Shown piece after piece: positions 2,460 to 21,009 of a stretch of DNA of 24,992 nucleotides. Source of the stretch: Nanobdellota archaeon (lineage in GTDB: Archaea > Nanobdellota > Nanobdellia > Pacearchaeales > GW2011-AR1); contig JAHJRM010000017.1 in assembly GCA_018830905.1 (NCBI GenBank), forward strand, positions 1 through 24,992, in the 5' to 3' direction. Made by a program: the position numbers and the translations under genes. The notes under the pieces were generated by a model. It worked only from the letters and a program-made list of their open reading frames with translations. It was not told where the DNA came from and searched no databases. How positions within the stretch are numbered: position 1 is the first letter of the stretch; every line of letters begins with the position of its first letter.

Positions 2460-2538
2460 GCTCGCCCACGGTTCGCTTAAGTTAGCACACACTTTGTTTA
2501 TGGATTGGATTGATAATAACTCTGTAAAATCATACAAG
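2460..2538 (-). repeat. Dispersed intergenic repeat, copy 1 (core on the minus strand)
   Basis: GTAAAATCATACAAG at 2524-2538 is the reverse complement of CTTGTATGATTTTAC; GCTCGCCCACGGTTCGC at 2460-2476 is the reverse complement of GCGAAC-N5-GCGAGC. Confidence 0.8.
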
Positions 2539-2609
2539 TTCATGGTAGATTTATGGTCATCTTAAAAATAAATTGCCGAGTGAAATGAGGCAGTAGCTTT
2601 AACAACCAA

Positions 2610-3098
2610 TCACCCAAAATAACCTTTACTATCAACTTCTACATTATCATCCCATTTACTATCAACCTTTTTAATAACGCTCAAAATCTCTTTTTTTGTG
2701 GAGCTCCAAAAATCAAAATTATCTTTTATGAATTTAGCATCTCTCTCCTCGCTAAACTCCAAATCCAACTCAATAAACACAAGTTCTTTCTTCATCAGGT
2801 CCTTGTAAATGCCCTCCAGCTTTTTCTTATCTTCGGGAGTAATCAATTTTATCAAGGAAAAAATAAACATCGGCGCGTTCACAGGATTCAGAATATTTTC
2901 GACAAATCGCATGTAATTCATAATTTTATCTACTATAAATTTCCGTATCTCTCTCAATAAAGTCTCAGTCTCAGAGTCAGCAACTTTCTCGATACTAAAC
3001 TCTTCATTAAGTACACTAAACTCTGGGAGACCATACTTCTCCCGAAGCCTATTATAATCTTTCTTTAATAATTTCAAACTAGAACATTCATCATCCAT
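2610..3098 (-). CDS. Hypothetical helical protein
   Basis: Open frame; start moved to ATG 3098 because TTTATAAA begins exactly 29 nt upstream (3127), as for other leaderless genes here. Confidence 0.8.
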   Translation of the reverse strand: MDDECSSLKLLKKDYNRLREKYGLPEFSVLNEEFSIEKVADSETETLLREIRKFIVDKIMNYMRFVENILNPVNAPMFIFSLIKLITPEDKKKLEGIYKDLMKKELVFIELDLEFSEERDAKFIKDNFDFWSSTKKEILSVIKKVDSKWDDNVEVDSKGYFG

Positions 3099-3182
3099 TT
3101 CTATCAAGAAACAACTTCTTTTATAAACCTAACTAAGCTGACAGAAGAATCTTTTTATAGTCTATTTATAATAATCATCTAG

Positions 3183-3329
3183 GCCTGTGTAGCTCAGTTG
3201 GTTAGAGCGCGTCATTGGTAATGCCCAACTTTCTTTAGAAAAGAAAGATTCGGCGCTCAAAGAAACTATGTTAGTCTCTACGAGTAACCGAGAATGACGA
3301 GGTCCTGAGTTCGACTCTCAGCACAGGCT
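3183..3329 (+). tRNA. tRNA-Thr(GGT) with a 73-nt intron at 37/38
   Basis: Acceptor GCCTGTG/CACAGGC, D arm GCTC/GAGC, anticodon stem CGTCA/TGACG with TT-GGT-A, T arm CTGAG-TTCGACT-CTCAG, U73 discriminator; CCA not encoded. Confidence 0.95.
3221..3293 (+). other. tRNA intron with a bulge-helix-bulge-like junction
   Basis: TTGG (32-35) pairs with intron CCGA; 3-nt bulges TAA and GAA; the outer helix is imperfect; two internal hairpins. Confidence 0.85.
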
Positions 3330-3389
3330 TATTAATGCTGAGCAAACTAAAGAGGGGGTGACTTGTTAGGGGGATTCTTCCCCATACGA

Positions 3390-3403
3390 CTCAGCACAGG
3401 CTT
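3390..3403 (+). repeat. 14-bp direct repeat of the tRNA-Thr 3' end (att-like scar)
   Basis: CTCAGCACAGGCTT at 3317-3330 and again at 3390-3403. Confidence 0.85.
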
Positions 3404-3408
3404 CTCAA

Positions 3409-3681
3409 CTATCTTCTAGTTCTAGAAATCAATAAAACCATAAGCGCCATCAAAAACGAAAGGGAAACGAACCCAAATATTATTGCCATAATACCAAAGA
3501 AAGTAGAAAACAAGGTAGTATTTGAAAAGCTATATAACAAATAAGACGCCAAAAACAAAATTATAAACAGTAATAAATTTCTCCAAGCAATTCTAATTCT
3601 TGCTGGGAAAGAATCAGATTTATGCGAAACCGTCTTCCTAGAAACCACCTTCTTCTTAGAAACACTCTTCTTTTTAGTCAC
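3409..3681 (-). CDS. Small membrane protein, basic N-terminus and two TM helices
   Basis: GTG start; Lys-rich N-terminus, then two hydrophobic helices. Confidence 0.7.
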   Translation of the reverse strand: MTKKKSVSKKKVVSRKTVSHKSDSFPARIRIAWRNLLLFIILFLASYLLYSFSNTTLFSTFFGIMAIIFGFVSLSFLMALMVLLISRTRR

Positions 3682-3749
3682 CTTTTTTTCCCTACCATTT
3701 TAATAAGATATTTTTACAAAGCAATTCTAGTTTTTAAAATTATGTCTCG

Positions 3750-3989
3750 TCAGCCCGAGCCTGTAGCAAGTTCTCCTTCGGAATAATCATTTAAAGGCAA
3801 CCATTGTGAATTCGCAACATACCCACCAATTTCAGAACCCTGATCAACCACATTATCTATCCATATTGAATACGCATCAATAAATATCGCTCTGTCAGCC
3901 TGCTCCCTCAAATTGAGATCACCATTACTGATTATGAACAGTGCAGATATAAAGAAAAATTTTATTGCAACAAGGATGAAAAATTTCAT
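3750..3989 (-). CDS. Small membrane-anchored protein, paralog of 3986-4288
   Basis: N-terminal hydrophobic helix; C-terminal Y-x2-W...Y-x2-N-x2-W pattern shared with its neighbour; ATGA overlap. Confidence 0.75.
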   Translation of the reverse strand: MKFFILVAIKFFFISALFIISNGDLNLREQADRAIFIDAYSIWIDNVVDQGSEIGGYVANSQWLPLNDYSEGELATGSG

Positions 3990-4288
3990 TCTTCAGTACT
4001 ATTCGAGCCATCTCCTTTCCACTCTTGATTCACCGCATAACTTGATACTCTCATTACACTTGAACCAACCTGGCTGAACCAAGAAAGATAAGTTTTCACT
4101 GCGCCTGAAACTCCATCAACTGTCGACATGTCCACATTTTTTCCAGAGACAACAAAAAATCCTATAAGGAGAATGAAAACAACACCCAAGGTAATAAGAT
4201 AAAACGCTAACTTAGTTCTGATATTATTCCATTTAAGAGCGAGAAAAACCCCCAGAAATGCTAGAACTGCAATAATAATAAAATTCAT
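3986..4288 (-). CDS. Small two-TM membrane protein
   Basis: Two hydrophobic helices and an amphipathic C-terminus; AGGTGA SD-like site upstream. Confidence 0.8.
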   Translation of the reverse strand: MNFIIIAVLAFLGVFLALKWNNIRTKLAFYLITLGVVFILLIGFFVVSGKNVDMSTVDGVSGAVKTYLSWFSQVGSSVMRVSSYAVNQEWKGDGSNSTEE

Positions 4289-4390
4289 TGTTTCACCTTT
4301 GCTAAATCAAAACAGGTATGTATAAAAATCTTTCGAAACATCATAATACACAAGCAAAAAACTTAAATAACACTCCTGCTAAACTATACC

Positions 4391-4678
4391 ATGGAAAAAG
4401 ACATTGGAAAAATAACAAAGAACGATACGACAGATGTAATCTTAAGAGTTGACGATTTCGGTGGGCGAAAAGGTTTAACAATAAGGGAATTCGTCACAAG
4501 CGAAAGATACACTGGATTCACAAAGTCTGGCGTGAGAATACTGGCACCAGATTTTGATAAGTTCAAAGAAATGATTAACTCCATAACTGAAGAAGACTTA
4601 AAGGAAGAATCAAGCGCAGAACCTGAAGCAGAACCAGAAACTGTTTCACAAGGAAATGAAGAAATTCCAGATTACTAA
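4391..4678 (+). CDS. PC4/p15-like (YdbC-like) ssDNA-binding protein with an acidic tail
   Basis: VDDFGGRKGLTIREFV...GFTKSGVRI resembles the PC4 core (vxxFxGxxxvDIRefy...ptkKGIsL); CTTAAATA 29 nt upstream. Confidence 0.75.
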   Translation: MEKDIGKITKNDTTDVILRVDDFGGRKGLTIREFVTSERYTGFTKSGVRILAPDFDKFKEMINSITEEDLKEESSAEPEAEPETVSQGNEEIPDY

Positions 4679-4693
4679 TTAGAAATAAAAACC

Positions 4694-4701
4694 TTTAAAT
4701 A
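4694..4701 (+). promoter_or_regulatory. TATA box with an A-rich BRE, driving the structured RNA / methyltransferase leader
   Basis: AAAAACC-TTTAAATA; there is no ATG 29 nt downstream, and instead the first stem of the RNA starts at 4723. Confidence 0.65.
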
Positions 4702-4722
4702 CTCTAAAAAACTGAGACGAAT

Positions 4723-4807
4723 AATTGATTAGGAGGGGCGGAATAATCAGTTAAATGGATGGTCTTCGGATTACCCGTTTGCTGGCTTCGGACGCCCTCT
4801 TCTAATT
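4723..4807 (+). ncRNA. Candidate structured RNA (pseudoknot or two-state), family unknown
   Basis: Stem 4723-4731/4744-4752; cUUCGg-capped hairpin 4753-4780; 4728-4740 is complementary to 4793-4806; GC-rich relative to its flanks. Confidence 0.55.
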
Positions 4808-4818
4808 ATTTTTCTAAA

Positions 4819-5348
4819 ATGATTTACGAACCTTCTGAAGATTCTTTTCTAATTGAAAAATGTGTTAAACAGTTTGCCGAAGGTAAAAGCGTTCTCGATA
4901 TGGATACAGGCTTGGGCATCCTCGCCGAAGTTGCCCTCACCATCAGAGCAAAAAGCGTCCTCGCCGCAGACATAAATCCAGAAGCAGTTGCTAATTTAAA
5001 ACAAAAAGGGATTCCAACAAGACACTCAGATTTATTCTCAACCATCTCTGAAAAATTCGACCTAATCATCTTCAACACTCCATACCTACCAAAAACTAAA
5101 AACGAGGACGAAGAATCAGAAACAATAACAACCGGCGGAGCCAAAGGCCACGAATAATCCAAAGCTTCCTCCAAGAAGCAAAATTCCATCTAAACAAGGA
5201 TGGAAAAATTCTCCTTTTATTCAGCTCTCTAACAGGTAAAGAAGAAGTTGACAGAATCCTCCAAGAAAACAATTACAAATTCAGATGTCTTGAAACAAAA
5301 AAGCTATTCTTCGAAGAACTTTATGTGTACAGGCTTTCTGTTAATTAA
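4819..5348 (+). pseudogene. Frameshifted HemK2/N6AMT1(Mtq2)-like SAM methyltransferase
   Basis: MIYEPSEDSFL N-terminus; the frame stops at 5157 but another frame continues IIQSFLQEAKFHLNKDGKILLLFSSLTG...LFFEELYVYRLSVN* to 5348 (apparent 1-nt loss near 5154); motif I is DMDTGLG and NPPY is NTPY. Confidence 0.85.
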
Positions 5349-5377
5349 AACTCTCCGATTAAGTTAACAAGAATACC

Positions 5378-5407
5378 TATGATTTTACCTGTTAATTGCG
5401 AGCTCCC
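5378..5407 (+). repeat. Dispersed intergenic repeat, copy 2 (truncated)
   Basis: TATGATTTTACCTGTTAATTGCGAGCTCCC; near-identical to copies 3 and 7. Confidence 0.85.
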
Positions 5408-5454
5408 TTCTCCCAAGTAAAAACCTTTTTAACTCAATTCTGTCTCTCTTTCTC

Positions 5455-7212
5455 ATGGAAACTCAAACTATCAAATCGCCAATAGTAACAGTCTGCGGAC
5501 ACGTTGATCACGGGAAAACAAGTATATTGGACTCTCTTAGAGGTAGCTCTGTCCAAGAAGGCGAGGCAGGAGGAATCACTCAAAAGATATCTTTCACATT
5601 CTATCCTGCAGAAAAACTAAAATCTACCTGTCCCCTCCTAAAAACAAGTGGTATCAATCTAACAATACCTGGATTTCTTTTCATAGACACACCCGGTCAC
5701 GCGGCATTCACTAATCTTAGAAAACGTGGTGGAGGACTAGCAGATCTAGCAGTTCTAGTTGTAGATATAAATGAAGGAATAAAACCCCAAACTGCAGAAG
5801 TCATACAAATTCTCAAACATAACAAGACCCCTTTCCTAATAGCACTTAATAAAATAGATAACATCTCAGGGTGGAAAACTCAAATAGATAAGGGAATCAA
5901 AGAAAGCATTGAATCTCAATCTCCGAATGCAAAACAGACCTTCAATGAAAGATATATGACTTTCATGGGTGCACTACAGAGCCATGGATTCGACTCTGAC
6001 CTATTCTTCAATGTTAAAGATTTCACAAAAAAAATTGCCTTAGTCCCCTGCTCCGCGAGAACAAAAGAAGGAATCCAAGAATTAATTATGATGCTCTGTG
6101 GGCTAAGTCAGAAATATCTCGGGGACAAGATAACACTCGGCAAAGATGCAAAAGGAATAATTCTCGAGATAAAAAAAGACAGGGACAATCTCTACCTAGA
6201 GTCAATTCTCCATGATGGGAGTTTCTCTAAAGGAGACGAAATAGCAATCGCAACACTTAATCCTGAAGAGGAACCAATAATTGGAAAAGTAAGAGTTCTC
6301 GAGGAGATACGACCACTCTCTTCAAAGTTCGAACCAAAAGATAAAGTCACAGCTGCGACAGGTCTAAGAATGCAAATCTCTGGTAAAGCAGACATTCTTC
6401 CAGGAATGCCATTCATTATTTATAAGGAAAACAAGGAAGAGGTAAAAGAAATCTTCAAACAACAGATTATAGAAAACATAAAGACAGGTAAGGAAGGAAT
6501 AATTGCAAAAGCAGATTCTCTTGGGAGCCTCGAGGCACTTCTAACTCTACTTAAACAAGAAGGAATTCCTGTAGTCAAAGCAGGAATCGGGAATATAAGC
6601 AAGTCAGATGTAATCTCAGCAAAGGCGAACATCAATATAAATGAACTCAACGCAATTATCGTTGGGTTTAATGTGTCAAATGATGATGACATCAATGACT
6701 TCCTAAACGGCAACGAGAAAATAAAAATCATAACGGATGAAGTAATTTACAAGCTTATAGAAAACGTGAAAGAGTTCCGAGAAAACAGAAGAAAAGGAAT
6801 TGAAAAGACACGACTTCTTGGTTTAACACCAATAACAAAAATAAAAATTCTTCACCAACACGTATTTAGAAACACTAGTCCTGCAATTTTTGGAATTAAG
6901 ATTGAAGCAGGTAGAATTGTTCCAAGAATGAGCCTTATAGATGAAAAAGGAGAAGACATAGGGCACATAAAAAACCTGCAAGCAGAAAATAAATCTGTTG
7001 AAGAAGCCCAAGAAGGACAAGAACTCGCAATCTCAATACCTGGAATAAACTTCGAGAGAAGAATGAAAGGAGTAAACTTCGCTTACAGCAATATCTCGTC
7101 ATCGCAATTTAAAAATTTTAGGAAAAATAAAGATTTACTATCTTCAAAAGAAATTTTGGCCCTGCAAGAAATCGCAGAAATCAAGAGAAATAATGGAGTT
7201 GAATTGGGTTAA
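5455..7212 (+). CDS. infB: Translation initiation factor aIF5B (IF2)
   Basis: GHVDHGKT, GGITQKI, FIDTPGHAAFTNLRKRGG, NKID, KADSLGSLEAL; 585 aa, no intein evident. Confidence 0.97.
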   Translation: METQTIKSPIVTVCGHVDHGKTSILDSLRGSSVQEGEAGGITQKISFTFYPAEKLKSTCPLLKTSGINLTIPGFLFIDTPGHAAFTNLRKRGGGLADLAVLVVDINEGIKPQTAEVIQILKHNKTPFLIALNKIDNISGWKTQIDKGIKESIESQSPNAKQTFNERYMTFMGALQSHGFDSDLFFNVKDFTKKIALVPCSARTKEGIQELIMMLCGLSQKYLGDKITLGKDAKGIILEIKKDRDNLYLESILHDGSFSKGDEIAIATLNPEEEPIIGKVRVLEEIRPLSSKFEPKDKVTAATGLRMQISGKADILPGMPFIIYKENKEEVKEIFKQQIIENIKTGKEGIIAKADSLGSLEALLTLLKQEGIPVVKAGIGNISKSDVISAKANININELNAIIVGFNVSNDDDINDFLNGNEKIKIITDEVIYKLIENVKEFRENRRKGIEKTRLLGLTPITKIKILHQHVFRNTSPAIFGIKIEAGRIVPRMSLIDEKGEDIGHIKNLQAENKSVEEAQEGQELAISIPGINFERRMKGVNFAYSNISSSQFKNFRKNKDLLSSKEILALQEIAEIKRNNGVELG

Positions 7213-7601
7213 TAACCTCCACGCCCCTTAATCACCTTACATGTAGGATGATTTTTTGCTATCCTATATAGTTTTCCATCCGAACCTTTCCACACATTAG
7301 AATAACCTTTTAACGGTTCCACAAGATAAAATCCTTCACTTCTCCCATCGACAGCCTGAGAAAGAGTCCTTTCTCCACTAGTAGCTTTCTTTTCCAAATC
7401 ATCTGCAAGTTTCTTATTGCCTACACTATTTTCTCCAATAACCTCTGTTAAAGATTCAAGCTCCCCTTCTATTACTTCCTCAGATTCAATCTCTTTCTTA
7501 TTTACGGCCTCAGTCAACATAGAAATTTCATCATCGTCAAACAAATGAAGAACATCTTCCTCTTCCTTTTTATTCCCATTTCTTAATTCATTGTAATTCA
7601 T
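7209..7601 (-). CDS. Hypothetical acidic protein (ORFan)
   Basis: AGGAGGT SD at 7613-7619; overlaps the upstream gene. Confidence 0.75.
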   Translation of the reverse strand: MNYNELRNGNKKEEEDVLHLFDDDEISMLTEAVNKKEIESEEVIEGELESLTEVIGENSVGNKKLADDLEKKATSGERTLSQAVDGRSEGFYLVEPLKGYSNVWKGSDGKLYRIAKNHPTCKVIKGRGGY

Positions 7602-7962
7602 TTTTCAGGCTTACCTCCTTTACTTTCAATTTTGCACGAGATGCCCTTACATAATCATCTAATGGAATGTATAATTCATTAAGAAATCCATTGTGAGTAT
7701 ACAATTCTGCCTCTCTAAAATCTTTATTATCATCCAAAAGTATAAGATATGATTTTATCTCTCTAAGAGATTTTTTGTAACAACTTCTAAATGTATCCCA
7801 CCTTTCAGATGCCCATTCAGGGTTGAGTATGACCGTTCCGACTCCCCCAATCCTGTGATTAAAATGACTCATTGCAATTGGGGACTCTTCATCCTGTATA
7901 CTTCTAATTTTATTATGATATCTCTCCGCAATTTCCTCAAGCATTCCAAGTGTCGGTTTCAT
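7588..7962 (-). CDS. Hypothetical protein (ORFan)
   Basis: AGGAGGT SD at 7975-7981; ATGA overlap. Confidence 0.75.
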   Translation of the reverse strand: MKPTLGMLEEIAERYHNKIRSIQDEESPIAMSHFNHRIGGVGTVILNPEWASERWDTFRSCYKKSLREIKSYLILLDDNKDFREAELYTHNGFLNELYIPLDDYVRASRAKLKVKEVSLKNELQ

Positions 7963-8165
7963 TTTCTAACGTAAACCTCCTTTCCATTTACAAACGTGTT
8001 CGGAACTAATTCATAATCAGCAGGGTTAACGCTCAAAGTACTTTTTGACATAAGTTCCTCCGCAATATAAAAACCACTGACATTTCCGAATCCCTTCTGA
8101 TATCTTATATCCAAAACTACTACAGGATAACCAATATCTAAATTATCAAAATTATATCCTGCCAT
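7959..8165 (-). CDS. Hypothetical 68-aa protein (start corrected to MAGYNF)
   Basis: AGGAGGT SD at 8174-8180 ahead of ATG 8165. Confidence 0.7.
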   Translation of the reverse strand: MAGYNFDNLDIGYPVVVLDIRYQKGFGNVSGFYIAEELMSKSTLSVNPADYELVPNTFVNGKEVYVRK

Positions 8166-8304
8166 TCTTAATAACCTCCTTAAGAAATTTATCAAGACTA
8201 TACTCCACTACATGCGACTTATTTCTAAACTCGCCCTTTTGCACACATCTAGCTATCTCATCCAATTTCTCTTCACTTATCGTGACGCTAATCTTTTTTT
8301 TCAT
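8152..8304 (-). CDS. Ribbon-helix-helix (CopG/Arc/MetJ-like) DNA-binding protein, 50 aa
   Basis: MKKKISVTISEEKLDEIARCVQKGEFRNKSHVVEYSLDKFLKEVIKNGRI: alternating beta strand, then helix-turn (N-K-S)-helix. Missed by the ORF track (<60 aa). Confidence 0.8.
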   Translation of the reverse strand: MKKKISVTISEEKLDEIARCVQKGEFRNKSHVVEYSLDKFLKEVIKNGRI

Positions 8305-8437
8305 CGCATAATATCTTACGATACGCCCTTTTTAAACTTTTCCTTATGTATTCATTCTTCAGTGGTAAAGTTGCAAGAGAAAATTTCAAACCTAAACATC
8401 TAATAAACTTTAAAAACCTTCCAAATCAATAATTAGA

Positions 8438-8956
8438 ATGCCATTCAAGATTAATATAGCGGAAAAATCCGGTAAGACATATCACCTAGAATTTGAAGGA
8501 GAGGATTTTAACGGGAAAGAATTAAAAGATAAAATAGAAGGAAAGATAATAATGCCTGAATTAGAGGGATACGAGTTCGAAATTGCAGGTGCGAGCGACA
8601 ATGCTGGATTCACCTCACACGAGAGCGTTACAGGGATAGGATTAAAAAAAATAATTCTCAGCTACGAAAAAGGAATGAAGAAGCGTCCAAAGAGGGAAGG
8701 AAAATGGAAACGCACTGACGTTAACCCAAGAGGACTTCGCCTTAGAAAAACAGTGAGAGGAAAGTCAATTTCAGCAGCCATAGCTCAGATAAATCTTAAA
8801 ACCTTAAAAGAAGGGGCAAAGAAGCTAAGCGAAATCTTCCCCGACCAGAACCAACCAAAAGTCGCACAAAAAGCCGAGGGTGAACAAGCTCCAACGACAT
8901 CAAAGACAGAGGCACCAAAAGAAACGCCTAAAGTAGAAGCAGTTCCCGCAGCTTAG
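8438..8956 (+). CDS. rps6e: 30S ribosomal protein S6e with a low-complexity C-terminal tail
   Basis: FKINIA...GYEFEIAGASDNAGF and GLRLRKTVRG...QINLK. Confidence 0.93.
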   Translation: MPFKINIAEKSGKTYHLEFEGEDFNGKELKDKIEGKIIMPELEGYEFEIAGASDNAGFTSHESVTGIGLKKIILSYEKGMKKRPKREGKWKRTDVNPRGLRLRKTVRGKSISAAIAQINLKTLKEGAKKLSEIFPDQNQPKVAQKAEGEQAPTTSKTEAPKETPKVEAVPAA

Positions 8957-9028
8957 TTTTCTATTTTGTTACTTCTCCATAATAACTACTTTAGAAAGAT
9001 TTATAAGGAATAATTTTTTAAAAAAACT

Positions 9029-9391
9029 ATGAAAAAGTTATTTGAAATATTAGGAGCAATAGTTGTAGCAGGAGTTGCTTCAATAGGATCAATAAGAGTC
9101 TCTTCTCCTATAGAATTAAAAGATGTTTATTGTACACCATGCGAAACTTTCCAAGGATACAAAGATCTTAGAGATTATGAAGAGGTCATAGGAAGATTAT
9201 ACGCCCTTGATTCCTTAGCACTATCTGAAAGAATTTCAAGAGGAATAAGAAAACCTGAGGTTGAAGTTAGGGGAGAACCAAGAATTCTTAGAAGGGATAA
9301 TCTTAAAATAGGCAACGATTATGTTTTTGAAATCGGAACAGATTTAGAAGGAAACAAAAGATTAATTGAAGCGACTCCCTGTACGAGATAA
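9029..9391 (+). CDS. Hypothetical exported or membrane-anchored protein
   Basis: N-terminal hydrophobic stretch; TTTATAAG 29 nt upstream. Confidence 0.7.
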   Translation: MKKLFEILGAIVVAGVASIGSIRVSSPIELKDVYCTPCETFQGYKDLRDYEEVIGRLYALDSLALSERISRGIRKPEVEVRGEPRILRRDNLKIGNDYVFEIGTDLEGNKRLIEATPCTR

Positions 9392-10078: not shown

Positions 10079-10079
10079 C

Positions 10080-13380: not shown

Positions 13381-13472
13381 TAATAAAACAAGAAATAAGT
13401 ATATAAAAAGTTATTCTTTAATCCTTTAAAATCTAAACGAACATTTTTAAACAATAATTTCTTAAACAAAAT

Positions 13473-14228
13473 ATGAAAAAGGTGACTTTAATTTTATTTC
13501 TAGTTTCATTTGTATTTGGTATTATGCTAAATTCTGCAATGGTTCTTTCTCAAGGAAATCAAAACTTCGCAAGCAACTCCGAAGATAATAGTGATGAAAC
13601 AATTTCTGGACAAGAAAGAAACATGAAACAAGAAAGAGAAAGAGAATTTACAAATGCAAATGGTATGAGGGCCCGTATCCAAAGGCAAGTTCGAATTGAA
13701 GACGGAAAGAGAATAATAGACGTCACGAGAACTATCACAGATACAAATGGAAATGAACAAGAAGTCAAAATAAAGATAGAAGAAAATACAGAAGGAATAG
13801 ATTCTCGGAGAAAGATAACTATTGAAGGCGAGACTGGAAATGAAAACATTATTGAAACAGAACTAGAAGTTGAAAGCGAATTCGAGGGGGAAGAATCTGA
13901 CATAATGGTAAAAACAACAGATGGACAAAGACACGCAGTTAAGATTCTGCCTGAAAGAGTAAGGGAAGTTGCAAGAGAGAGACTAAGAATAAGAGAAGAA
14001 GGTCTTTCAAATCTAACTCTTGAAGAAATTATGGAAAATGGTGTTCCAAGAGTCGTCTATAAGTTAGCTTCAAAACATCCTGGAAGATTCCTTGGAATAT
14101 TCAAGACTGCACTTAAAGCGGAAACTCAAATTGATCCTGAGACAGGAGAAGTCCTTAACGTTAACAAACCCTGGTGGGCATTTCTAGTTAACGAAGAAGA
14201 AGTTGCCGATGATGATTCTGCAGAATAA
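13473..14228 (+). CDS. Exported charged protein with a C-terminal 'PWW' domain
   Basis: Signal peptide, Glu/Arg-rich body, C-terminal RFLGIF...IDPETGEV...KPWWAFL; TTTTTAAA 29 nt upstream. Confidence 0.85.
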   Translation: MKKVTLILFLVSFVFGIMLNSAMVLSQGNQNFASNSEDNSDETISGQERNMKQEREREFTNANGMRARIQRQVRIEDGKRIIDVTRTITDTNGNEQEVKIKIEENTEGIDSRRKITIEGETGNENIIETELEVESEFEGEESDIMVKTTDGQRHAVKILPERVREVARERLRIREEGLSNLTLEEIMENGVPRVVYKLASKHPGRFLGIFKTALKAETQIDPETGEVLNVNKPWWAFLVNEEEVADDDSAE

Positions 14229-14270
14229 AGATGAATAAGTTAAGAAATTATTTCCCTAAAATTTCCCCAA

Positions 14271-14311
14271 TCCTTGTATGATTTTACCTGTTAATCGCGA
14301 GCGCAGCGAGC
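14271..14311 (+). repeat. Dispersed intergenic repeat, copy 3
   Basis: TCCTTGTATGATTTTACCTGTTAATCGCGAGCGCAGCGAGC, 22 nt behind the map stop. Confidence 0.9.
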
Positions 14312-14333
14312 TAGAATTCACTTTCAACAAAAA

Positions 14334-15212
14334 TCAGGCTGTCACAATTTTAACATCTTTTTTCTCAACAAGAATTGTATGCTCTGCCTGACTAACCTTA
14401 CTTCCAGAAATCTCTATAAGCTGATTAAACTGATGCAAATTACCACTTTCTTCCAACTGTCTCAATCCAAAGATCGCTTTGGTTCCAAACTTCTTAATTA
14501 TCCATCTTGAACAAAAAGGTAAGTTATAATATTCTTTTTCTATAAACTCTAAAATTTCACGCGCAATCGAATTTCTAACATTTCTATTTGAGATTAATTC
14601 ATAAATTCCTGAAGGCCTACCGTCTTTAACACGACCGCTCCCGTTGGTCGCGAACGGCTCAACAGCATAAAGCCCTGATTTAATTTCAATGCTTTTTCCA
14701 TCATTAACATTTGGAATACTAATTCCTGTGTGCAATTCATACTCATCCATTTCGTGACCACTAAGATTCATCACCGGAGAAAAACCAAGAGATTCTATTT
14801 TTTTTGAAATACTCTCACCAATCTCAGAAGTAGACACTCCATTTTTTATAAGTGTCAATGCAGAATCAAGTGCTTTTTCCGACGCTTCAATAAGTTTTTT
14901 GTTCTCTTCACTATTCTCCAAATCAACTGAAAAAGCAGTATCAGCTATCCAACCATTGACATGAACTCCAAAATCTACTTTCAATAAACCATGAGCAAGT
15001 GTTTTATCATCGTGTTCAGGAGTGTAATGCGCTGCAATATTATTTATGCTCAAATTCACAGGAAATGCCGGCTTTCCACCCAACTCAACAATTTTTCCCT
15101 CTATATTCTCAGCAATCTCGAGTAAAGGCATGCCTTTCTCAACAATCTTCTTAGCATAAGCCCTGACTTCAGAAGCAATCTTTCCCGCCTTGATAATTTT
15201 CTCTGTGTTCAT
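14334..15212 (-). CDS. map: Methionine aminopeptidase type 2
   Basis: PAFPVNLS, AAHYTP, KVDFGVHVNGWIADTA, NLSGH, AVEPFAT, SQAEHT. Confidence 0.96.
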   Translation of the reverse strand: MNTEKIIKAGKIASEVRAYAKKIVEKGMPLLEIAENIEGKIVELGGKPAFPVNLSINNIAAHYTPEHDDKTLAHGLLKVDFGVHVNGWIADTAFSVDLENSEENKKLIEASEKALDSALTLIKNGVSTSEIGESISKKIESLGFSPVMNLSGHEMDEYELHTGISIPNVNDGKSIEIKSGLYAVEPFATNGSGRVKDGRPSGIYELISNRNVRNSIAREILEFIEKEYYNLPFCSRWIIKKFGTKAIFGLRQLEESGNLHQFNQLIEISGSKVSQAEHTILVEKKDVKIVTA

Positions 15213-15532
15213 TTTAATAATTTAAATTTTATAATCTTCAATTTGGTTTCTGGAACAACTCTAAAACTGTAATACCTAGAGTAAGTATTATACATATCTT
15301 CATCAGACAAAAAACTTTCATGACCTTCCTTATCTTCACTATTCAAGTCATCAAACTTTGTATCTTTTACATTCAATATCTCTGCCTGACCAAACTTCTC
15401 TCCAAGAGCATTTAATAAATCTATTGTCTCACCAACAGTAAGATCTTTCTCATCATTAATTCTCCATGTTGTACTTTTTTGTCTAGAGAGAATTAACGGA
15501 ATTAGTGGTTGTGCAAATTTAATGGTTTTCAT
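15209..15532 (-). CDS. ASCH domain protein
   Basis: KFxxxLxxLILSxxKSTTWR...GETI pattern of the ASCH/PUA-like fold. Confidence 0.8.
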   Translation of the reverse strand: MKTIKFAQPLIPLILSRQKSTTWRINDEKDLTVGETIDLLNALGEKFGQAEILNVKDTKFDDLNSEDKEGHESFLSDEDMYNTYSRYYSFRVVPETKLKIIKFKLLK

Positions 15533-15785
15533 CTTCTAAAAATTCAAAAATTTCTTTTTGCTTATGACTATTCAATCCGACATGAATCTCTCCTGTCGAA
15601 GGTTTAATATTTAAGAATTGTAGTTTTATTAATTCTTTGATTGCCATTTTATGTTCTCTCGTTCCTCTAAGATGTGCCGGCAAACATTTTTGCAGATTCT
15701 TCATCTCTGTGTGACGTCCACCCCAGATATTCAAATTGACTAATTTTCTAAGAATCCTTTTCATAATTGCCACGCACAAATCCAT
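15519..15785 (-). CDS. Small basic hypothetical protein, possibly winged-helix
   Basis: WGGRHT...NL...AIKELIK...KPSTGEIHVGLN; CTTAAGAA 29 nt upstream; overlaps ASCH. Confidence 0.75.
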   Translation of the reverse strand: MDLCVAIMKRILRKLVNLNIWGGRHTEMKNLQKCLPAHLRGTREHKMAIKELIKLQFLNIKPSTGEIHVGLNSHKQKEIFEFLEDENH

Positions 15786-15839
15786 TAACTAAAGAATACT
15801 CCGTGTTTCTTAAGATTTACTCAACAAAAATGAAACACT

Positions 15840-15861
15840 AATGTTCCAAAATAGAAACATT
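15840..15861. promoter_or_regulatory. Imperfect palindrome (candidate operator) abutting a TATA box
   Basis: AATGTTCC-AAAATA-GAAACATT (7 of 8 arm positions complementary) next to TTTAAATA at 15860-15867. Confidence 0.5.
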
Positions 15862-15888
15862 TAAATAAACTCTCTCTTACAATTAGAC

Positions 15889-16185
15889 ATGAAAACACTA
15901 TTCCGACATGCTCTTGGTGACACTCCAAAAATAAGAGTCCTAGAATTTTTAATGGAGGGAAGAGAATTAGACTATAGCATATCTGACATCGCTGAAGGTG
16001 CAGAAATCGGGAGGACTACTCTATTCAGAATATTTGATGATTTAATTAAGACAGGAATGATTGTCCCAACACGTGAGATAGGGAATGCAAAACTCTACAA
16101 GCTAAATCAAAAAAACACTTTCATCAAAAAACTCATCCCAATATTTGACGAAGTCATATTTCAAAAGAAGAAAGTTTCTGCCTGA
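15889..16185 (+). CDS. Winged helix-turn-helix transcriptional regulator
   Basis: KIRVLEFL...YSISDIAEGAEIGRTTLFRIFDDL...TREIGNAKLYKLN. Confidence 0.88.
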   Translation: MKTLFRHALGDTPKIRVLEFLMEGRELDYSISDIAEGAEIGRTTLFRIFDDLIKTGMIVPTREIGNAKLYKLNQKNTFIKKLIPIFDEVIFQKKKVSA

Positions 16186-16186
16186 T

Positions 16187-16666
16187 TCATCCTCTATCCC
16201 GAACCCTTCTTGATTTGGGAATAAAATTACCAATCTTATTCTCAGAAGCCTTGCCAATCCCAAAAAAATCATTTCCATTTTTCATAACCAAAAAACCGTT
16301 CAACCCGGTTCGAATATTCAAATCCCTTCCGCGAATCCAATCGTCCATGCTCTTATCATCCATCTCAAAAATATTTTTAGTTATTTGATTTCTTAGAAGA
16401 CTAACTCCTTCAATACTCAACTTGATTTTATCATCAACCATTTTAGCAAAATAAACTCCAACACGCTCAATAATAACATTTTCCTCAAGCTTCTTCAATT
16501 TCCAACTCTCAAAATTTCCAGAATAAAAATACAATCTTTCTCTGCCTCTCATAACCATAGTCCCAGGAACATCTTTAATGCCAAATCTCTCCTGCAACTC
16601 AGACACAACCCTCTCTCTATCTTTCATTGCAACAATTCTCATAGGCACAAACTTATCAGAAACCAT
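16187..16666 (-). CDS. Stand-alone RsmF C-terminal / NIP7-like PUA domain protein
   Basis: ERVGVYF, KLSIEG, WIRGRDL, DFFGIGK...IGNFIPKSRR; TTAAAAAA 29 nt upstream of ATG 16666. Confidence 0.75.
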   Translation of the reverse strand: MVSDKFVPMRIVAMKDRERVVSELQERFGIKDVPGTMVMRGRERLYFYSGNFESWKLKKLEENVIIERVGVYFAKMVDDKIKLSIEGVSLLRNQITKNIFEMDDKSMDDWIRGRDLNIRTGLNGFLVMKNGNDFFGIGKASENKIGNFIPKSRRVRDRG

Positions 16667-16780
16667 AATCAAGAAAAGCTAAGACCGTTTTTTAATGTTT
16701 GTTTTATCATATCATTGTCATAAAAAGAGACTTCGCTAACGCTCAAAGTTAACTATGAATCTATCTGGAACTAGCATTAA

Positions 16781-16832
16781 CTTGTATGATTTTACTACAT
16801 TATCTTCAAGAAAATTTGCGAACGGAATAAGC
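16781..16832 (+). repeat. Dispersed intergenic repeat, copy 4
   Basis: CTTGTATGATTTTAC...TTATCT...AAATTTGCGAACGGAATAAGC, behind the pyk stop. Confidence 0.85.
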
Positions 16833-16869
16833 AAGTAAATTTAGTATGATTATTAATCTCTAAACAGAA

Positions 16870-17562
16870 TCAGCAAAACCTCCCTAGATTCTTCTCCGCC
16901 TCTTTGATTATGCTCTCCATAACTTTAACCGCGTTCGCAGGATATTTTCCAACAGCAGTCTCTTCAGACAACATCACCATTGTAGAACCGTCGAAAACGG
17001 CATTAACGACATCATTAGTCTCAGAATTCTTAGGGGTCTTATGTCCTTTCAATGAATAAAGCATCTCAGTAGCAGTAATTGAAATCTTTCCTTTTTTCTT
17101 GCACTTCTTCAAGATTTCTTTCTGCCGAATCGGAACTCGCCCTATAGGAATATTCTCTGACAGATCCCCTCGCGCAACCATTATCCCATCGCTCTCCTTC
17201 AGAATATTATCAAAATTCCTTATTCCCTTCTTGTTTTCTATCTTAGCAATTACCATAACATCTTTAGACCCAAGAATTTTCTTAACTTCCTTTATCTGCC
17301 GAGCTGAAGACGCAAATGATATCGCGACATACTCATAATCCCTGTCCTTCATCCAATCAAGAATTTTAAGATTATTTATATCAATCAAGACCTCAAGTCC
17401 TGCCCTCCTTATCAAATCGTAAATCTTAAACAATTGAGCCTTATTAGTATACTTAGTATTTATTCTACCAACATCCATGCCGTTTTTTTTCATCTTTCTA
17501 AGAGTAATCAAGTTGTTACTCGCCGGCCCAATCGTCGCAACAATTTTAGTTTTTGATTTCAT
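16870..17562 (-). CDS. pyk: Pyruvate kinase-like protein, barrel only (no B or C domain)
   Basis: TKIVATIGPAS, IAKIEN, DGIMVARGDL, ITATEML, NAVFDG, MLSEETAVGKYP; only 230 aa. Confidence 0.88.
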   Translation of the reverse strand: MKSKTKIVATIGPASNNLITLRKMKKNGMDVGRINTKYTNKAQLFKIYDLIRRAGLEVLIDINNLKILDWMKDRDYEYVAISFASSARQIKEVKKILGSKDVMVIAKIENKKGIRNFDNILKESDGIMVARGDLSENIPIGRVPIRQKEILKKCKKKGKISITATEMLYSLKGHKTPKNSETNDVVNAVFDGSTMVMLSEETAVGKYPANAVKVMESIIKEAEKNLGRFC

Positions 17563-17760
17563 GATTCTAATAATTACCTTTCATTTTTTAATGTATTGCT
17601 TTTGACACAAGAAATCACGTTCACATACAGACTAATGGCTTTAACCTAAAAAAGTTCGTTATTTATCGGGATGTTTAACAAAAGAAATTTTATTATATAT
17701 TGTTAGTTGCAACTTAGTCCTTCGGACGTATTGCTTCGGCTTCGCCTCAGAAATTTATAT

Positions 17761-17792
17761 TAGAAATAATCTTCCCCCCGAAACGAATTTTC
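17761..17792. repeat. Left hybrid site A'-spacer-B of the prenyltransferase cassette
   Basis: TAGAAATAATCT-TCCCCCC-GAAACGAATTTTC. Confidence 0.8.
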
Positions 17793-18771
17793 ATTCATAT
17801 CTTTTTAACAAATCATAAAACTTATTTCTTTGCGTCATTGTTGTTGCAAATTCAATCATTCTTCTTGCCCTTGAATCTGAAAAGTCTGCAAGAATCTCTA
17901 AACCTTTATCACAATACTCTTGAGCTAATTGTTTTCCTTTTTCTATTACTCCATGTTGCACAACAATTTGTCTAACTTTTTCAATTTGATCAGGTGTTAA
18001 AGTTCTCTGACCAAAAAGTTCTTCTAACTCTTGTCTATCTTTTTCTGGGGCTTCACTTAAAGCAATCATATTTGGAAAAGTATATTTTCCTGCTCTAAAA
18101 TCTTCTAAATCTTTTCCAAAATCCCAAGTATCATTGGCGATTATATAGGCCATCCCTATATTCCTCCCTGCTAAACCTATTGCATCTAATTCTTCATTTG
18201 TGGCTTTTCCCAAAGTTGCTCCCAATCTTAATGCTCTCTCCCAAAAATTATAACCTTTAACTTTTTGTAAATATGTATTCATATCAGGTTCTCTTAAATT
18301 TAAGTCAATTAAAACTGCGTTTGCATTTTCTGAATCTAATTCAGCCAACTCTTCTATAGTTTTTCTAACAAGATTTGCTGAAAAATCTGAATTTAAGTCA
18401 TTTAACATTCTGTAAGACATAGAAGAGAAAATTCCTCCTAGTAGAATTAAGTCTGGATTTGCATGAGAATCAAGAACATCATCATAACAATAATAACCTG
18501 TGTCTTTTGCTTCAACAGAAGCACATGCAGGAATTGTTTTTTGCCAATTATTTCCTCCAGATAATTCATAAGCTATTCTTACTTGAGCAGGTCTTAATTG
18601 TGGTTTTCCAAATCTATACCTTTGCATAAGTTTTTGCATTAATTCTGGATTAGTATCATATTTTGATTGGATAAATTCTTTTACATAATGGTCTACAGCT
18701 TCAGCTGTTTCTTTCAGATATTCAAAATATTCAGTTCTTGCTTGATGCCTTTCTTTACTTTTCTTGCTCAT
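17791..18771 (-). CDS. Isoprenyl diphosphate synthase / class I terpenoid synthase fold protein, atypical
   Basis: GKPQLRP, DDVLD first Asp-rich motif, NDTWD second motif, DFRAGKYT; looks more A/T-ending at third codon positions than its neighbours (by eye). Confidence 0.85.
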   Translation of the reverse strand: MSKKSKERHQARTEYFEYLKETAEAVDHYVKEFIQSKYDTNPELMQKLMQRYRFGKPQLRPAQVRIAYELSGGNNWQKTIPACASVEAKDTGYYCYDDVLDSHANPDLILLGGIFSSMSYRMLNDLNSDFSANLVRKTIEELAELDSENANAVLIDLNLREPDMNTYLQKVKGYNFWERALRLGATLGKATNEELDAIGLAGRNIGMAYIIANDTWDFGKDLEDFRAGKYTFPNMIALSEAPEKDRQELEELFGQRTLTPDQIEKVRQIVVQHGVIEKGKQLAQEYCDKGLEILADFSDSRARRMIEFATTMTQRNKFYDLLKRYE

Positions 18772-18809
18772 AGTGATACTACTATTAAGTTAATATTTAT
18801 AAATCTTTA

Positions 18810-18840
18810 GAAAACTCGTTTCCACCCCAGATTATTTCTA
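18810..18840. repeat. Right hybrid site B'-spacer-A of the prenyltransferase cassette
   Basis: GAAAACTCGTTTC-CACCCC-AGATTATTTCTA. Confidence 0.8.
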
Positions 18841-19010
18841 TTTTTTTAGAAAAAAAGAAACAAAAAAGCGCGTGTGCCCTAAATTTTAGGCATTCCCTTT
18901 GGTCAGACAAATGTAACAGCGATTAAGAGATTCCAAAAACTTACAGGTTTCTCCGACCAAATCGCCTTCGGCTCGTGATTGATAATAAATAACGAAAAAA
19001 GAAACATGTC

Positions 19011-19118
19011 CTTGTATGATTTTACATATTATTTGTGAGTGAGCAATTCCGTGGTAGAGAGTAAAATTAATCAAATTTCTCGTGCGGAGTTGGGAATAGT
19101 CAGCGAGCTCCCCTTTCC
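19011..19118 (+). repeat. Dispersed intergenic repeat, copy 5 (long variant)
   Basis: CTTGTATGATTTTAC at 19011-19025, GTGAGTGAGC, and CAGCGAGCTCCCCTTTCC at 19101-19118 behind the Nop2 stop. Confidence 0.8.
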
Positions 19119-19126
19119 TAAAATAA

Positions 19127-20095
19127 TTAATCCCCAACCTTCCTAAACTTCGCAATGAAAAAACCTTCAGTCTCATCATCCTGAGGATAAATTCTGCAAG
19201 AGTACTTAACATCTTCAAGATACTCTCTCTCCTTCCATTTAGAAATTCCTTCTCGAGATTTAATCGGGATGTTAATTCTCTCAATCTTAATCTGTCCCTT
19301 AAACTCTTCCAAAATGGAATTAACAACACCCTCATTTTCTTCGGGCGAGTGCGTGCACGTGCTATAAACAATCTCTCCGCCCTTTTTCAAAATACTAAAC
19401 GCATTAGAAAAAAGATCCTTCTGAACTCCAGAAAGTTTCCTCACTGTGTTAATATTCCACATTATTGCAGTTTTAGGCGTGCTCCTCAAAGTTCCCTCTC
19501 CAGAACACGGCGCATCAATAAGAATCTTATCAAATCCATAATCCAACTTCTTCAACTTTCTACACAAAGCCGCACCATCCTGTTTTGTAATCACAACATT
19601 AGTCACACCGCATCTCTCAGTATTCGAAGCAAGTATCTTTATCCTTCCAAGACTAACCTCATTTGCAATTATTGTCCCCGTATTTTTCATAAGAGAAGCA
19701 ATCTGCGTAGTCTTACTCCCAGGAGCAGCGCACAAATCTAAAACTAATTCATCAGGTTTAGGATTTAAAGCAATAACAGGCAACATACTCGCAATCTCCT
19801 GAACATAATAATATCCCAAAACGTGCTCAACACTTCTTCCCAACTCTCCGGGCTCCAATTCATTTTCAATAATCATTATCTCTGGATTCTTCTTGAACTT
19901 TTGAGAAAGTTTCCACCCCTTAGCCTCAAGACGCTTTTTCAAATCTGAAGGAGAAATTTTAAGAGTATTACATCTAATAGACCGCGGCGGCTCCCTCTCG
20001 ATCGCCTCAATATAATTATCAAAATCGTCGCCAAGAAGTTCTTTCATTCTCTCAATAAAAAGAGGTTTCAAGTTTGCAGAATCTAATCTTGTCAT
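19127..20095 (-). CDS. Nop2/RsmB/RsmF-family RNA m5C methyltransferase
   Basis: YYVQEIASM, DLCAAPGSKT, DKILIDAPCSGEG, YSTCTHSPEENE, TEGFFIAK. Confidence 0.95.
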   Translation of the reverse strand: MTRLDSANLKPLFIERMKELLGDDFDNYIEAIEREPPRSIRCNTLKISPSDLKKRLEAKGWKLSQKFKKNPEIMIIENELEPGELGRSVEHVLGYYYVQEIASMLPVIALNPKPDELVLDLCAAPGSKTTQIASLMKNTGTIIANEVSLGRIKILASNTERCGVTNVVITKQDGAALCRKLKKLDYGFDKILIDAPCSGEGTLRSTPKTAIMWNINTVRKLSGVQKDLFSNAFSILKKGGEIVYSTCTHSPEENEGVVNSILEEFKGQIKIERINIPIKSREGISKWKEREYLEDVKYSCRIYPQDDETEGFFIAKFRKVGD

Positions 20096-20160
20096 GATTC
20101 AAAAAAGATGAAGTTGTTTTAATTAGTTTACTCTTATATTTGATTAATACCCAAACAGAA

Positions 20161-20232
20161 AATAAACATCTTCAGTATGATTTTACCTTATTATCTCTCG
20201 GATAAATTTGCGAGCGTCAGCGAGCCTTCCTC
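20161..20232 (+). repeat. Dispersed intergenic repeat, copy 6
   Basis: AATAAACATC...TATGATTTTAC...TTATCT...AAATTTGCGAGCGTCAGCGAGCCTTCCTC; ends 6 nt from the stop of 20239-20844. Confidence 0.88.
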
Positions 20233-20238
20233 CTAAAA

Positions 20239-20844
20239 CTAACAACCACAACTCTTTATCTTCTTACCCAAAAAAAAGAAAGGATACAGGATATCACTAA
20301 CACAACAAGGAACAATAACTGCCACAAACGTAATTACAAAAGAAATCACCAAATAAGATACATCAAACTCTGGGCTAAAAGCAAGAAGGTAGAAAAGGCT
20401 TGCAAAAACAGACAATCCAACATGAATAAAATGAGGCATGCTCGTCATTTTTGTTTTCGCTCCAATAAAGCTTCCTACTAGTGCAGAGCCAAGGATTAAT
20501 GCTGGTTCTTCAATTATTGGAAGATGAAAATGTGTGTGAAGACTTAAGAGATTTCCCCCTATCCAAGGAAAAACAACATCGCTAAGACTTCCAATAATTA
20601 TCGCCCCAGAAATTCCAACTAGTAAAGCAGGAATCATTTTAGATTTGTATTTGTAAAAAATACCAGAGGTAACCATCGCAGATGCAAAAACATGCAGAGG
20701 ATGGAAAATCTCAAAAGACCCCTCCGAAACACCCAACTGTAAATAATACTCTATAAACAAAACGACCCCTATCGCAATAAACGTTGCCGCAGCAGCAAAA
20801 GGTACGTGATGCTTCGTCTCATGAATAAGTTCTTTAATCCTCAT
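20239..20844 (-). CDS. Multi-TM membrane protein with His/Cys clusters, unknown function
   Basis: About six hydrophobic segments; HHVPF, FHPLH, HTHFH, HFIH, PCCVSD. Confidence 0.8.
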   Translation of the reverse strand: MRIKELIHETKHHVPFAAAATFIAIGVVLFIEYYLQLGVSEGSFEIFHPLHVFASAMVTSGIFYKYKSKMIPALLVGISGAIIIGSLSDVVFPWIGGNLLSLHTHFHLPIIEEPALILGSALVGSFIGAKTKMTSMPHFIHVGLSVFASLFYLLAFSPEFDVSYLVISFVITFVAVIVPCCVSDILYPFFFLGKKIKSCGC

Positions 20845-20950
20845 TTAAATTATAGAAAATGAATTAGCTTTATAAATCTTGCAGGAATCGCGGTGATGAT
20901 TCCCCTATCGGTTTTGGAATAGCCAAGTATTTCTAAAAAAACTCCCTAAA

Positions 20951-21009
20951 AAATAAACATATCCTTGTATGATTTCACCTGTTAATTGCGAACGTTAGTG
21001 AGCTTCCCC
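20951..21009 (+). repeat. Dispersed intergenic repeat, copy 7
   Basis: AAATAAACATATCCTTGTATGATTTCACCTGTTAATTGCGAACGTTAGTGAGCTTCCCC, abutting the polB stop. Confidence 0.9.

Follow-up and report, generated by a model that had tools for sequence, protein, structure and literature searches.

Why does a 24,992-nt stretch of DNA from a DPANN archaeon (hereafter the window) carry seven copies of one short, asymmetric repeat, most of them just behind the stop codons of housekeeping genes? DPANN genomes are tiny and have little non-coding DNA, yet this genome gives a visible share of its intergenic sequence to a private modular repeat system. The initial annotation of the window offered two explanations: a non-autonomous element resembling repetitive extragenic palindromes (REP) and mobilised by an HUH enzyme, or a protein-bound signal for 3'-end processing or termination. 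The results below favour part of the first. We put the chances at about even that the copies belong to a family of the REP or bacterial interspersed mosaic element (BIME) type, made up of modular non-coding repeats between genes, restricted to one clade and read by a sequence-specific factor.

The core and the module mosaic

The window is one contig (C83) of a groundwater genome, G000, of 598 kb in 98 contigs, with 36% GC and 89% completeness. Scanning it with the core pattern TATGATTT[TC]AC, whose starts exclude any preceding CTTG, gave exact matches at 2524-2534 on the minus strand and at 5378, 14277, 16785, 19015, 20176 and 20968 on the plus strand, which recovered all seven copies first described. 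When at most one mismatch was allowed there were 10 matches versus 1.9 expected, and none of 100 shuffled sequences reached 10. CTTG preceded the core in five of the seven copies, the exceptions being those at 5378 and 20176. The whole genome contained 36 exact copies spread over at least 30 contigs, and 35 of these were intergenic by our own crude open reading frame (ORF) calls, under which 16% of the genome is intergenic.

Besides the core, aligned copies have two features in common, a TTA(A/T)(T/C) box located 4 nt (in some copies 3 nt) downstream and an A-rich stretch upstream; the remainder is variable. The invariant part of the unit is the 9-mer TGATTTTAC, after which, at a distance of three or four nucleotides, come one or two TTAWY boxes about one helical turn apart. 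The unit was generalised as TGATTTTAC-N3-4-TTA, plus the GC module described below. This pattern had 66 exact intergenic matches in G000 and 55 in its sister species, G042, and the same pattern read backwards had one in each; these counts allow a 3- or 4-nt spacer and are distinct from the whole-genome counts of 61 and 43 given later. Cores in G000 were mostly intact, 66 being exact and 17 having one mismatch, over a background of 4. A hairpin around the TTAAT box was considered and rejected, as stem lengths were no better than in re-paired controls. A five-codon mini-ORF (ATG ATT TTA CNN NNT TAA) was also rejected: the TTA box lies at 3 nt in 18 copies, which puts the TAA out of frame, and the first letter of the NTG varies.

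The most repeated 12-mers of G000 all come from a few short modules: the core, GCGAGCGTAGCGAGC (the GC module), GGGGGTGACTTGTTAGGGG, GCGACTTCGTGGTAG, GGGAACGAAGTGAAC, CCATACGAATTG and a G-rich GGGCTGGGCGGG block. These modules recur in set orders in intergenic DNA, often at contig ends. In other words, the unit of core and GC module is one part of a larger mosaic that is like BIMEs or BOX elements. The BOX elements of Streptococcus pneumoniae consist of short modules (A, B, C and so on) joined in variable intergenic arrays. Their counterparts here are the core and the GC module, along with the GGGTGACTTGT, TTCGTGGTAG and G-rich units. However, the sequences are unrelated and the module sizes differ, and the present family has one strictly invariant core and a polar placement.

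The clamped mini-hairpin and the layout of the element

The GC module linked to the core had been described as a direct repeat of GAGC motifs, as in the site of adeno-associated virus Rep, and explicitly not as a hairpin. That description has to be replaced. Because the inner letters pair and show compensatory changes, the module is read here as a small hairpin in which (TT)GC-GA and GA-GC(AAGTA) enclose a stem of 2-3 bp with a GNA or GNNA loop. In G000 and G042 together, 235 of the 487 candidates with a GA clamp had an inner stem of at least 2 bp (2-3 bp), versus 69 after shuffling, and 176 GA-clamped hairpins were counted. The commonest inner stem was GC/GC (78), followed by AC/GT (28), GGC/GCC (19), GCC/GGC (15) and GT/AC (12). 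Nearly all loops were G-N-A or G-N-N-A (GAA 45, GTA 31, GGA 14, GTTA 9, GCA 8, GTCA 6).

Covariation was measured in an alignment of 19 sequences downstream of cores, which were chosen without regard to their stem letters. Paired cells made up 82.9% of this alignment, compared with 67.3% after shuffling; none of 500 shuffles was as high, and slid controls reached at most 39.5%. At one stem pair, GC was found eight times and AU six times. Copies with a long linker have the same clamp and longer covarying stems (CAATTG/CAATTG, AGCCCTGT/ACAGGCTT and GAAAAC/GTTTTC, with AAAATC/GATTTT in the more distant congener G005), and some hairpins of G005 and a further congener, G024, are perfect GC stems with GAA, AAA or GCCA loops. 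The tandem G·A clamp, in the context C-GA-G, is confined to the core-bearing strand, the opposite strand having TC/TC, and on the core-bearing strand there were about 106 G·U pairs versus about 42 A·C pairs. A kink-turn, the site of L7Ae, was rejected as an identification; tandem G·A is present, but Watson-Crick pairs continue directly on both sides and there is no 3-nt bulge.

The sequences GCGNAGC and GCGNNAGC have been published as "extraordinarily stable" mini-hairpins (PMC13037366). Mini-hairpins of the GCGNAGC type occur in the origin of phage G4, in ssiA and ssiB of RSF1010 and in the promoters of the phage N4 virion RNA polymerase, and they reportedly shield nucleic-acid ends from exonucleases (PMC13037366). 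The GC module has the two G-C pairs closing a GNA or GNNA loop that define these sequences, with GC/GC as its commonest stem, and the same core classes are found in it (GCGAAGC, GCGTAGC, GCGGAGC, GCGCAGC and GCGTCAGC). The known cases differ from it in being single phage or plasmid origins or promoters, while here there are 60 chromosomal copies behind genes, and neither a primase nor a phage polymerase is linked to the copies. Together with this chemistry, the strand-specific G·A clamp makes it plausible that the elements act in single-stranded form. As a natural mini-hairpin of the GCGNAGC type present in high copy number and clamped by tandem G·A pairs, the module offers a route to testing the in vivo role of such hairpins as DNA or RNA.

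Hairpins are placed around the core in a preferred arrangement. A GA-clamped hairpin was found downstream of the core on the same strand in 53 of 114 cases and upstream on the opposite strand in 54, compared with 27 downstream on the opposite strand and 13 upstream on the same strand, over a background of about 18% per scanned interval. The second hairpin lies about 45 nt beyond the other side of the core, on the opposite strand, in about half of the elements. In its full form, then, the element has an asymmetric core framed by two hairpins in inverted orientation. From the core to the start of the downstream hairpin there are 9-10 or 18-23 nt, sometimes more (range 9 to 82 nt), and these two clusters, seen genome-wide, bear out the two linker subtypes recognised among the window copies.

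The GC-module side faced a stop codon in 25 of the 31 exact G000 copies examined. Convergent regions make a stop-facing orientation trivial, so the fair test is in co-directional intergenic regions, where in G000 and G042 the preferred direction was found 38 times versus 18 (68%). Hairpins with the GA strand antisense to the genes were 0-34 nt past a stop codon in 19 of 34 cases, and those with the GA strand in the gene sense were mostly 70-440 nt from one. Read in the direction of the gene, the order is stop codon, a hairpin that is weak in mRNA, the core complement GTAAAATCA, T-rich sequence, sometimes a second and strong hairpin, and then the TTTATAAA-type promoter of the next gene. Convergent regions were over-represented, with 28% of elements versus 17% of regions, and divergent regions were under-represented (13% versus 18%; 12 of 94 elements). 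Element direction also tracked the majority gene direction of its region, 47 versus 17.

An intrinsic terminator was rejected, in agreement with the initial annotation. The stable GA version of the stop-proximal hairpin is on the antisense strand, it is followed by AAGTA rather than by Ts, and T-runs come after the core in some copies only.

In one subfamily (C1:4054, C34:5069, C36:5488 and C65:15211 of G000, among others) a G-rich block replaces the GC mini-hairpin after the core. This block, GGGCTGGGCGGGNGGG, has four G-runs and is G-quadruplex-like; on the gene-sense strand it appears as a C-rich tract 16-34 nt past the stop codon.

Distribution, turnover and competing explanations

Whole-genome counts of the generalised pattern were 61 in G000, 43 in G042, 10 in G005, 8 in G024 and 5 in another congener, G046. 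The other 36 genomes of the genus had 0-3 copies each, and the 15-mer core was found in none of 40 relatives, a set that did not include the sister species. Public genome contigs gave two chance hits and viral contigs none. Among public metagenome contigs there were 13 hits, of which about 5 were true, and all 5 came from two samples, Ga0180007 and Ga0180009, which represent populations of the same site. Four DNA sequencing runs were listed, all of them from groundwater metagenomes, and no RNA run.

G042 shares 85-92% nucleotide identity with G000, and its assembly is 90% complete. At 21 G000 copies with collinear flanks, the core was at the same place in G042 for 9 and not for 12. The clean indels between the two genomes were 50, 123, 160, 186 and 257 nt long and had no consistent target duplication; one of the five is bounded by a 7-nt TCAGAAA repeat that can equally be read as a microhomology deletion. 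The lack of a consistent fixed-length duplication rejects a transposable element of the miniature inverted-repeat kind. At several shared sites, such as copy 6 of the window, the core and hairpin match in the two genomes and the surrounding sequence is unrelated, a pattern that points to exchange between copies or repeated insertion. As an outgroup for gain and loss, G005 is too divergent (about 67% identity outside one gene) and is readable only at the copy 6 site.

The identical 9-mer, in the same layout of box, linker and hairpin, occurs in G005 and G024, two genomes with about 67% gene identity to G000. Something must read a 9-nt core that is invariant across species differing by a third of their gene sequence, and the presence of this same 9-mer with no decay of the core indicates that something sequence-specific has read it since before these species split. 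The 5' flank differs, being CGCG, CGTG or other letters in G005 and G024 rather than CTTGTA, and CTTG is therefore not part of what is read.

REP, BIME and REPIN (REP doublet forming hairpins) elements belong to Proteobacteria, where they are mobilised or maintained by the REP-associated tyrosine transposase (RAYT), a Y1 HUH enzyme. The present repeats resemble them as short GC-rich imperfect palindromes, extragenic, located behind stop codons and present in dozens of copies; the 176 hairpins, and the 35 of 36 exact cores that are intergenic, illustrate this. The two systems also share mosaics with other modules, lineage-specific families, old copies that remain intact, and the absence of target duplication. 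The inverted hairpin pairs at about half of the cores may correspond to the doublets of REPINs, and at the copy 4 site G042 has kept a doublet that lacks the core. The differences are an archaeal (DPANN) host, an invariant non-palindromic 9-nt core 9-80 nt from the hairpin in place of the GTAG head of REP, a hairpin that is a GNA mini-hairpin of 2-3 bp with a clamp of tandem G·A pairs, and the enzyme. No RAYT was found in G000, where the only Y1 type scores as IS200 and is not flanked by the repeats.

The initial annotation had suggested looking for copies next to Rep, IS200 TnpA or recombinase genes. No core was found near any of eight tnpA loci in seven genomes. G000 has two Y1 transposase genes, at C76:38-493 (L128) and on C94 (9486-10113, with an in-frame TGA; L129). 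The protein scored 99.5 bits against the IS200 model of NCBIfam (cut-off 55) and 32.2 bits against the RAYT model REP_Tyr_transpos (cut-off 80), and the gene is flanked by other hairpins, so the candidate of a RAYT gene flanked by REPs was rejected. These end hairpins of the resident insertion sequence (IS), CCGCACAC-TTTA-GTGTGCGG and CCACCGCC-TAAA-GGCGGTGG, are unrelated to the GC module. Y1 genes were found in four of the five family-carrying genomes versus 11 of 37 other congeners, a weak association among related genomes.

The ends of IS200/IS605 elements and their miniatures of the palindrome-associated transposable element (PATE) type are like the present family in being strand-specific, with a short conserved motif and a subterminal hairpin, in lacking the usual inverted terminal repeats, and in making no target duplication. 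A true IS200-type element and miniatures do exist in G000 and G042. However, the resident IS hairpins are unrelated to the GC module and the cores are not at IS ends, and an origin of the repeats as an IS200/IS605-derived miniature was rejected. In G042 there are at least 8 copies of a miniature IS200 derivative of about 370 nt in which tnpA has been replaced by repeat modules (loci L026, L028, L039, L062, L075, L090 and L096), and no tnpA was found in its 90%-complete assembly. The core, the hairpin and the GGGTGACTTGT unit are internal cargo of this miniature, which means that the modules travel.

These data support in outline the REP-like half of the first proposal: the repeats occur in a few species of one genus in uneven copy numbers, 9 of 21 sites are kept, target duplication is absent and a Y1 gene is present in the genome. 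The details proposed for the HUH mechanism did not survive, as discussed below. In the mechanism we envisage, a factor present only in the family-carrying species would recognise the core together with a neighbouring hairpin on one strand, most likely in single-stranded form; this factor could possibly be an HUH/Y1 enzyme. Copies would be spread or homogenised by insertion that leaves no target duplication and by recombination between copies. The position close to stop codons would be where such DNA is tolerated, in an orientation that puts T-rich terminator sequence downstream of the gene, and the elements may have been co-opted as a 3'-end buffer. Identifying the reader would reveal the first counterpart in archaea of the REP-RAYT relationship or else a new kind of 3'-end signal.

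Several observations weigh against a REP-type family. The copies within G000 are only 70-90% alike, and they carry no signature of a recent burst or of recent transposition. An intact core at old orthologous copies fits a host function and not decaying selfish DNA. The HUH enzyme of G000 is of the IS200 type, has its own, different and perfect end hairpins and adjoins no core. Of the 37 congeners in which copies are few or absent, 11 have Y1 genes, but in G042, with its 43-55 copies, no Y1 gene was found. When eight element strands were folded as DNA by nearest-neighbour rules, the structures were no more stable than shuffles (z 0.2 to 1.0); standard folding of this kind has no terms for the GNA mini-hairpin or G·A clamp motifs, and the hairpin therefore rests on covariation and on published mini-hairpin chemistry. 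Polarity is moderate (68%), and rules based on gene ends and on replication strand both describe about 70% of cases and are confounded on short contigs. The assignment of copies to intergenic DNA depends on the crude ORF calls mentioned above.

The main rival, retained from the initial annotation, is a host 3'-end signal, in which a protein would bind the core and hairpins as a polar terminator, or these would act as a cassette shielding the 3' ends of mRNA. We regard it as a serious but less likely alternative. Under this explanation, the upstream transcript would cross the weak (UC) first hairpin and the core and then meet the stable GA-clamped hairpin, the oligo-T runs, or both. The position of the module, 0-34 nt behind the stop codons of housekeeping genes and in one direction, agrees with this, as do the T-rich sequence met past the core when reading in the gene direction (T6 and T7 in the case of polB), the enrichment in convergent regions, the invariance of the core at orthologous and cross-species copies, and the reported guarding of nucleic-acid ends against exonucleases by mini-hairpins (PMC13037366). 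With almost no copies in most congeners (three or fewer in 36 of the 41 others), the element cannot serve the genus as a general terminator. In the sister species it is missing from half of the sites, where no replacement is visible. Divergent genes flank 12 of the 94 elements, and of the 56 in co-directional regions 18 are reversed. In addition, the mRNA-sense strand directly past the stop codon carries the weak UC hairpin, and no consistent T-run follows the hairpins.

It is doubtful that the core marks a promoter or 5' module of small or antisense RNAs that start near the core and run through the GA-clamped hairpin into the 3' end of the neighbouring gene or into module arrays. Of the two strands, the core-bearing one is the likelier to fold, judging by the G·A clamp and by its G·U pairs, which exceed the A·C pairs; the core heads arrays of other modules in G000, G042, G005 and G024, and there is an A-rich stretch 17-31 nt upstream of it. 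However, no TATA-like box was seen at a fixed distance, the upstream region carrying only 0.3-0.9 bits per position, and real promoters in G000 read TTTATAAA or TTTTTATA. The core-to-hairpin distance varies widely, and most copies would send antisense transcription into housekeeping genes. Rfam gave no match to the elements, a tRNA being its only match in searches of the whole window (E ≤ 1) and around the tRNA (E ≤ 10).

Improbable, by analogy with the phage and plasmid mini-hairpins, is that the core and the GNA mini-hairpin form a signal in single-stranded DNA, paired on opposite strands as the RSF1010 ssiA and ssiB signals are, and read by a clade-specific primase, HUH nickase or hairpin-promoter polymerase. 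If so, a DPANN archaeon would have, at the ends of genes, chromosomal sites for strand-specific initiation or nicking.

Mobilisation of the element by an HUH enzyme like those of phiX174 (A), pC194 (Rep) or IS91, through a nick at CTTG beside GAGC direct repeats, seems to us very improbable. CTTG precedes 18 of the 36 exact G000 copies, the Y1 gene is more frequent in family-carrying genomes, and the indels lack target duplication. But CTTG, proposed as the nick site, is not conserved, since the same 9-mer follows CGCG, CGTG and other letters in G005 and G024; the supposed GAGC repeats are the two arms of one hairpin, and the Y1 gene is of the IS200 type with its own ends. In G000, G042, G005, G024 and G046 no match was found to TnpB (PF07282), nor to Viral_Rep (PF02407) or Rep_1 (PF01446), the last two being weak negatives as the named controls were also blank.

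An integron-like cassette array, with an attC-type site behind each gene, would account for the direct-orientation repeats after successive genes from 14 to 21 kb of the window, but it is hardly credible given that the flanked genes are core housekeeping genes, that the core is asymmetric and lacks the R''-L''/L'-R' inverted structure, that the copies are scattered over at least 30 contigs, and that no tyrosine recombinase (Phage_integrase) was found in G000, at 89% completeness, with one or two matches in each of the relatives.

The seven copies in the window

The copies and their hairpins are listed in Table 1. Complete GC modules are present in copies 1, 3, 6 and 7, and the flanks of copies 2, 4 and 5 bear out the initial description of truncated or degenerate ones. 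Pfam confirmed the neighbouring genes as pheT, map (M24), pyk, nop2/RsmB and polB; the sixth gene is unnamed. Six of the seven copies do lie behind a gene of matching orientation, as first noted, with the qualification that four of these have co-directional genes on either side and that copies 1 and 3 are in convergent intervals, where such an orientation is trivial.

Table 1. Positions of repeat cores, hairpins and associated features in the window
Feature	Position	Strand	Context
Copy 1 GC mini-hairpin, GCGAA-CC-GTG-GG-CGAGC	2460..2476	-	About 20 nt past pheT stop codon (pheT by Pfam)
Copy 1 core, CTTG-TATGATTTTAC, long linker	2524..2538	-	Convergent-gene interval
Copy 2 core, TATGATTTTAC, then CTG-TTAATT and truncated hairpin (GCGAGC only)	5378..5407	+	
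Copy 3 core, CTTG-TATGATTTTAC, short linker CTGTTAATC	14273..14287	+	
Copy 3 mini-hairpin, GC-GA-GC-GCA-GC-GA-GC	14297..14311	+	22 nt from stop codon of map (- strand)
Copy 4 upstream inverted hairpin, - strand GA-GC-GTTA-GC-GA	16731..16748	-	Retained in G042
Copy 4 core	16781..16795	+	Its module of about 50 nt missing from G042
Copy 4 degenerate hairpin and conserved 3' flank (GCGAACGGAATAAGC-AAGTA)	16818..16837	+	Behind pyk stop codon
Copy 5 upstream inverted hairpin, - strand CGAG-CC-GAA-GG-CGAT	18961..18979	-	
Copy 5 core, CTTG-TATGATTTTAC, then different GC module of TTCCGTGGTAG ('D') type	19011..19063	+	Behind nop2/RsmB stop codon
Copy 6 core, without CTTG, long linker	20176..20186	+	
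Copy 6 mini-hairpin, GC-GA-GC-GTCA-GC-GA-GC (GNNA loop)	20210..20225	+	13 nt from stop codon of gene 20239-20844
Two oligo-T runs (T6, T7 in polB direction)	20933..20960	-	Directly after copy 7
Copy 7 core, CTTG-TATGATTTCAC, short linker CTGTTAATT	20964..20978	+	
Copy 7 mini-hairpin, GC-GA-AC-GTTA-GT-GA-GC (compensated AC/GT stem)	20988..21003	+	6 nt from polB stop codon

Copy 2 departs from the polarity: it is 66 nt upstream of a gene that Pfam identifies as aIF5B/IF-2 and points the same way as that gene. G042 keeps this copy at the orthologous position. Where G000 has copy 4, both flanking hairpins are still present in G042, and only the 50-nt core module is missing. At the copy 6 site, G042 shares the core and hairpin in entirely different flanks, and G005 has an empty site there. 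Next to copy 6, the unnamed gene has a C-terminal end (window 20239-20300) that differs between G000 and G042, which have the element, and G005, which does not, and arrival of the element may have reshaped the 3' end of this gene. Such elements are of practical concern, as they alter gene 3' ends and, with many copies at contig ends, break assemblies.

Oligo-T is the usual archaeal terminator signal, and the runs next to copy 7 follow it in the polB direction. At this site G042 has about 1 kb of other DNA in place of the copy: G042:C39:6828-7830, orthologous to window 20883-21010, is extra sequence with small ORFs between polB and the next gene.

Window 3183-3329 contains a tRNA gene interrupted by a 75-nt intron. 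Next come a 60-nt insert (3330-3389) and a duplicate of the tRNA's final 13 nt (CTCAGCACAGGCT), which extends to 3402. The insert is one copy of a genome-wide GGGGGTGACTTGTTAGGGGG...CCCCATACGA module, which elsewhere has a GC mini-hairpin on each side, often of the same variant.

The pyruvate kinase ORF (window 16870-17562, minus strand) encodes 230 aa and matches only the second half of the pyruvate kinase barrel domain (profile positions 182-328). The ORF may have been truncated or split.

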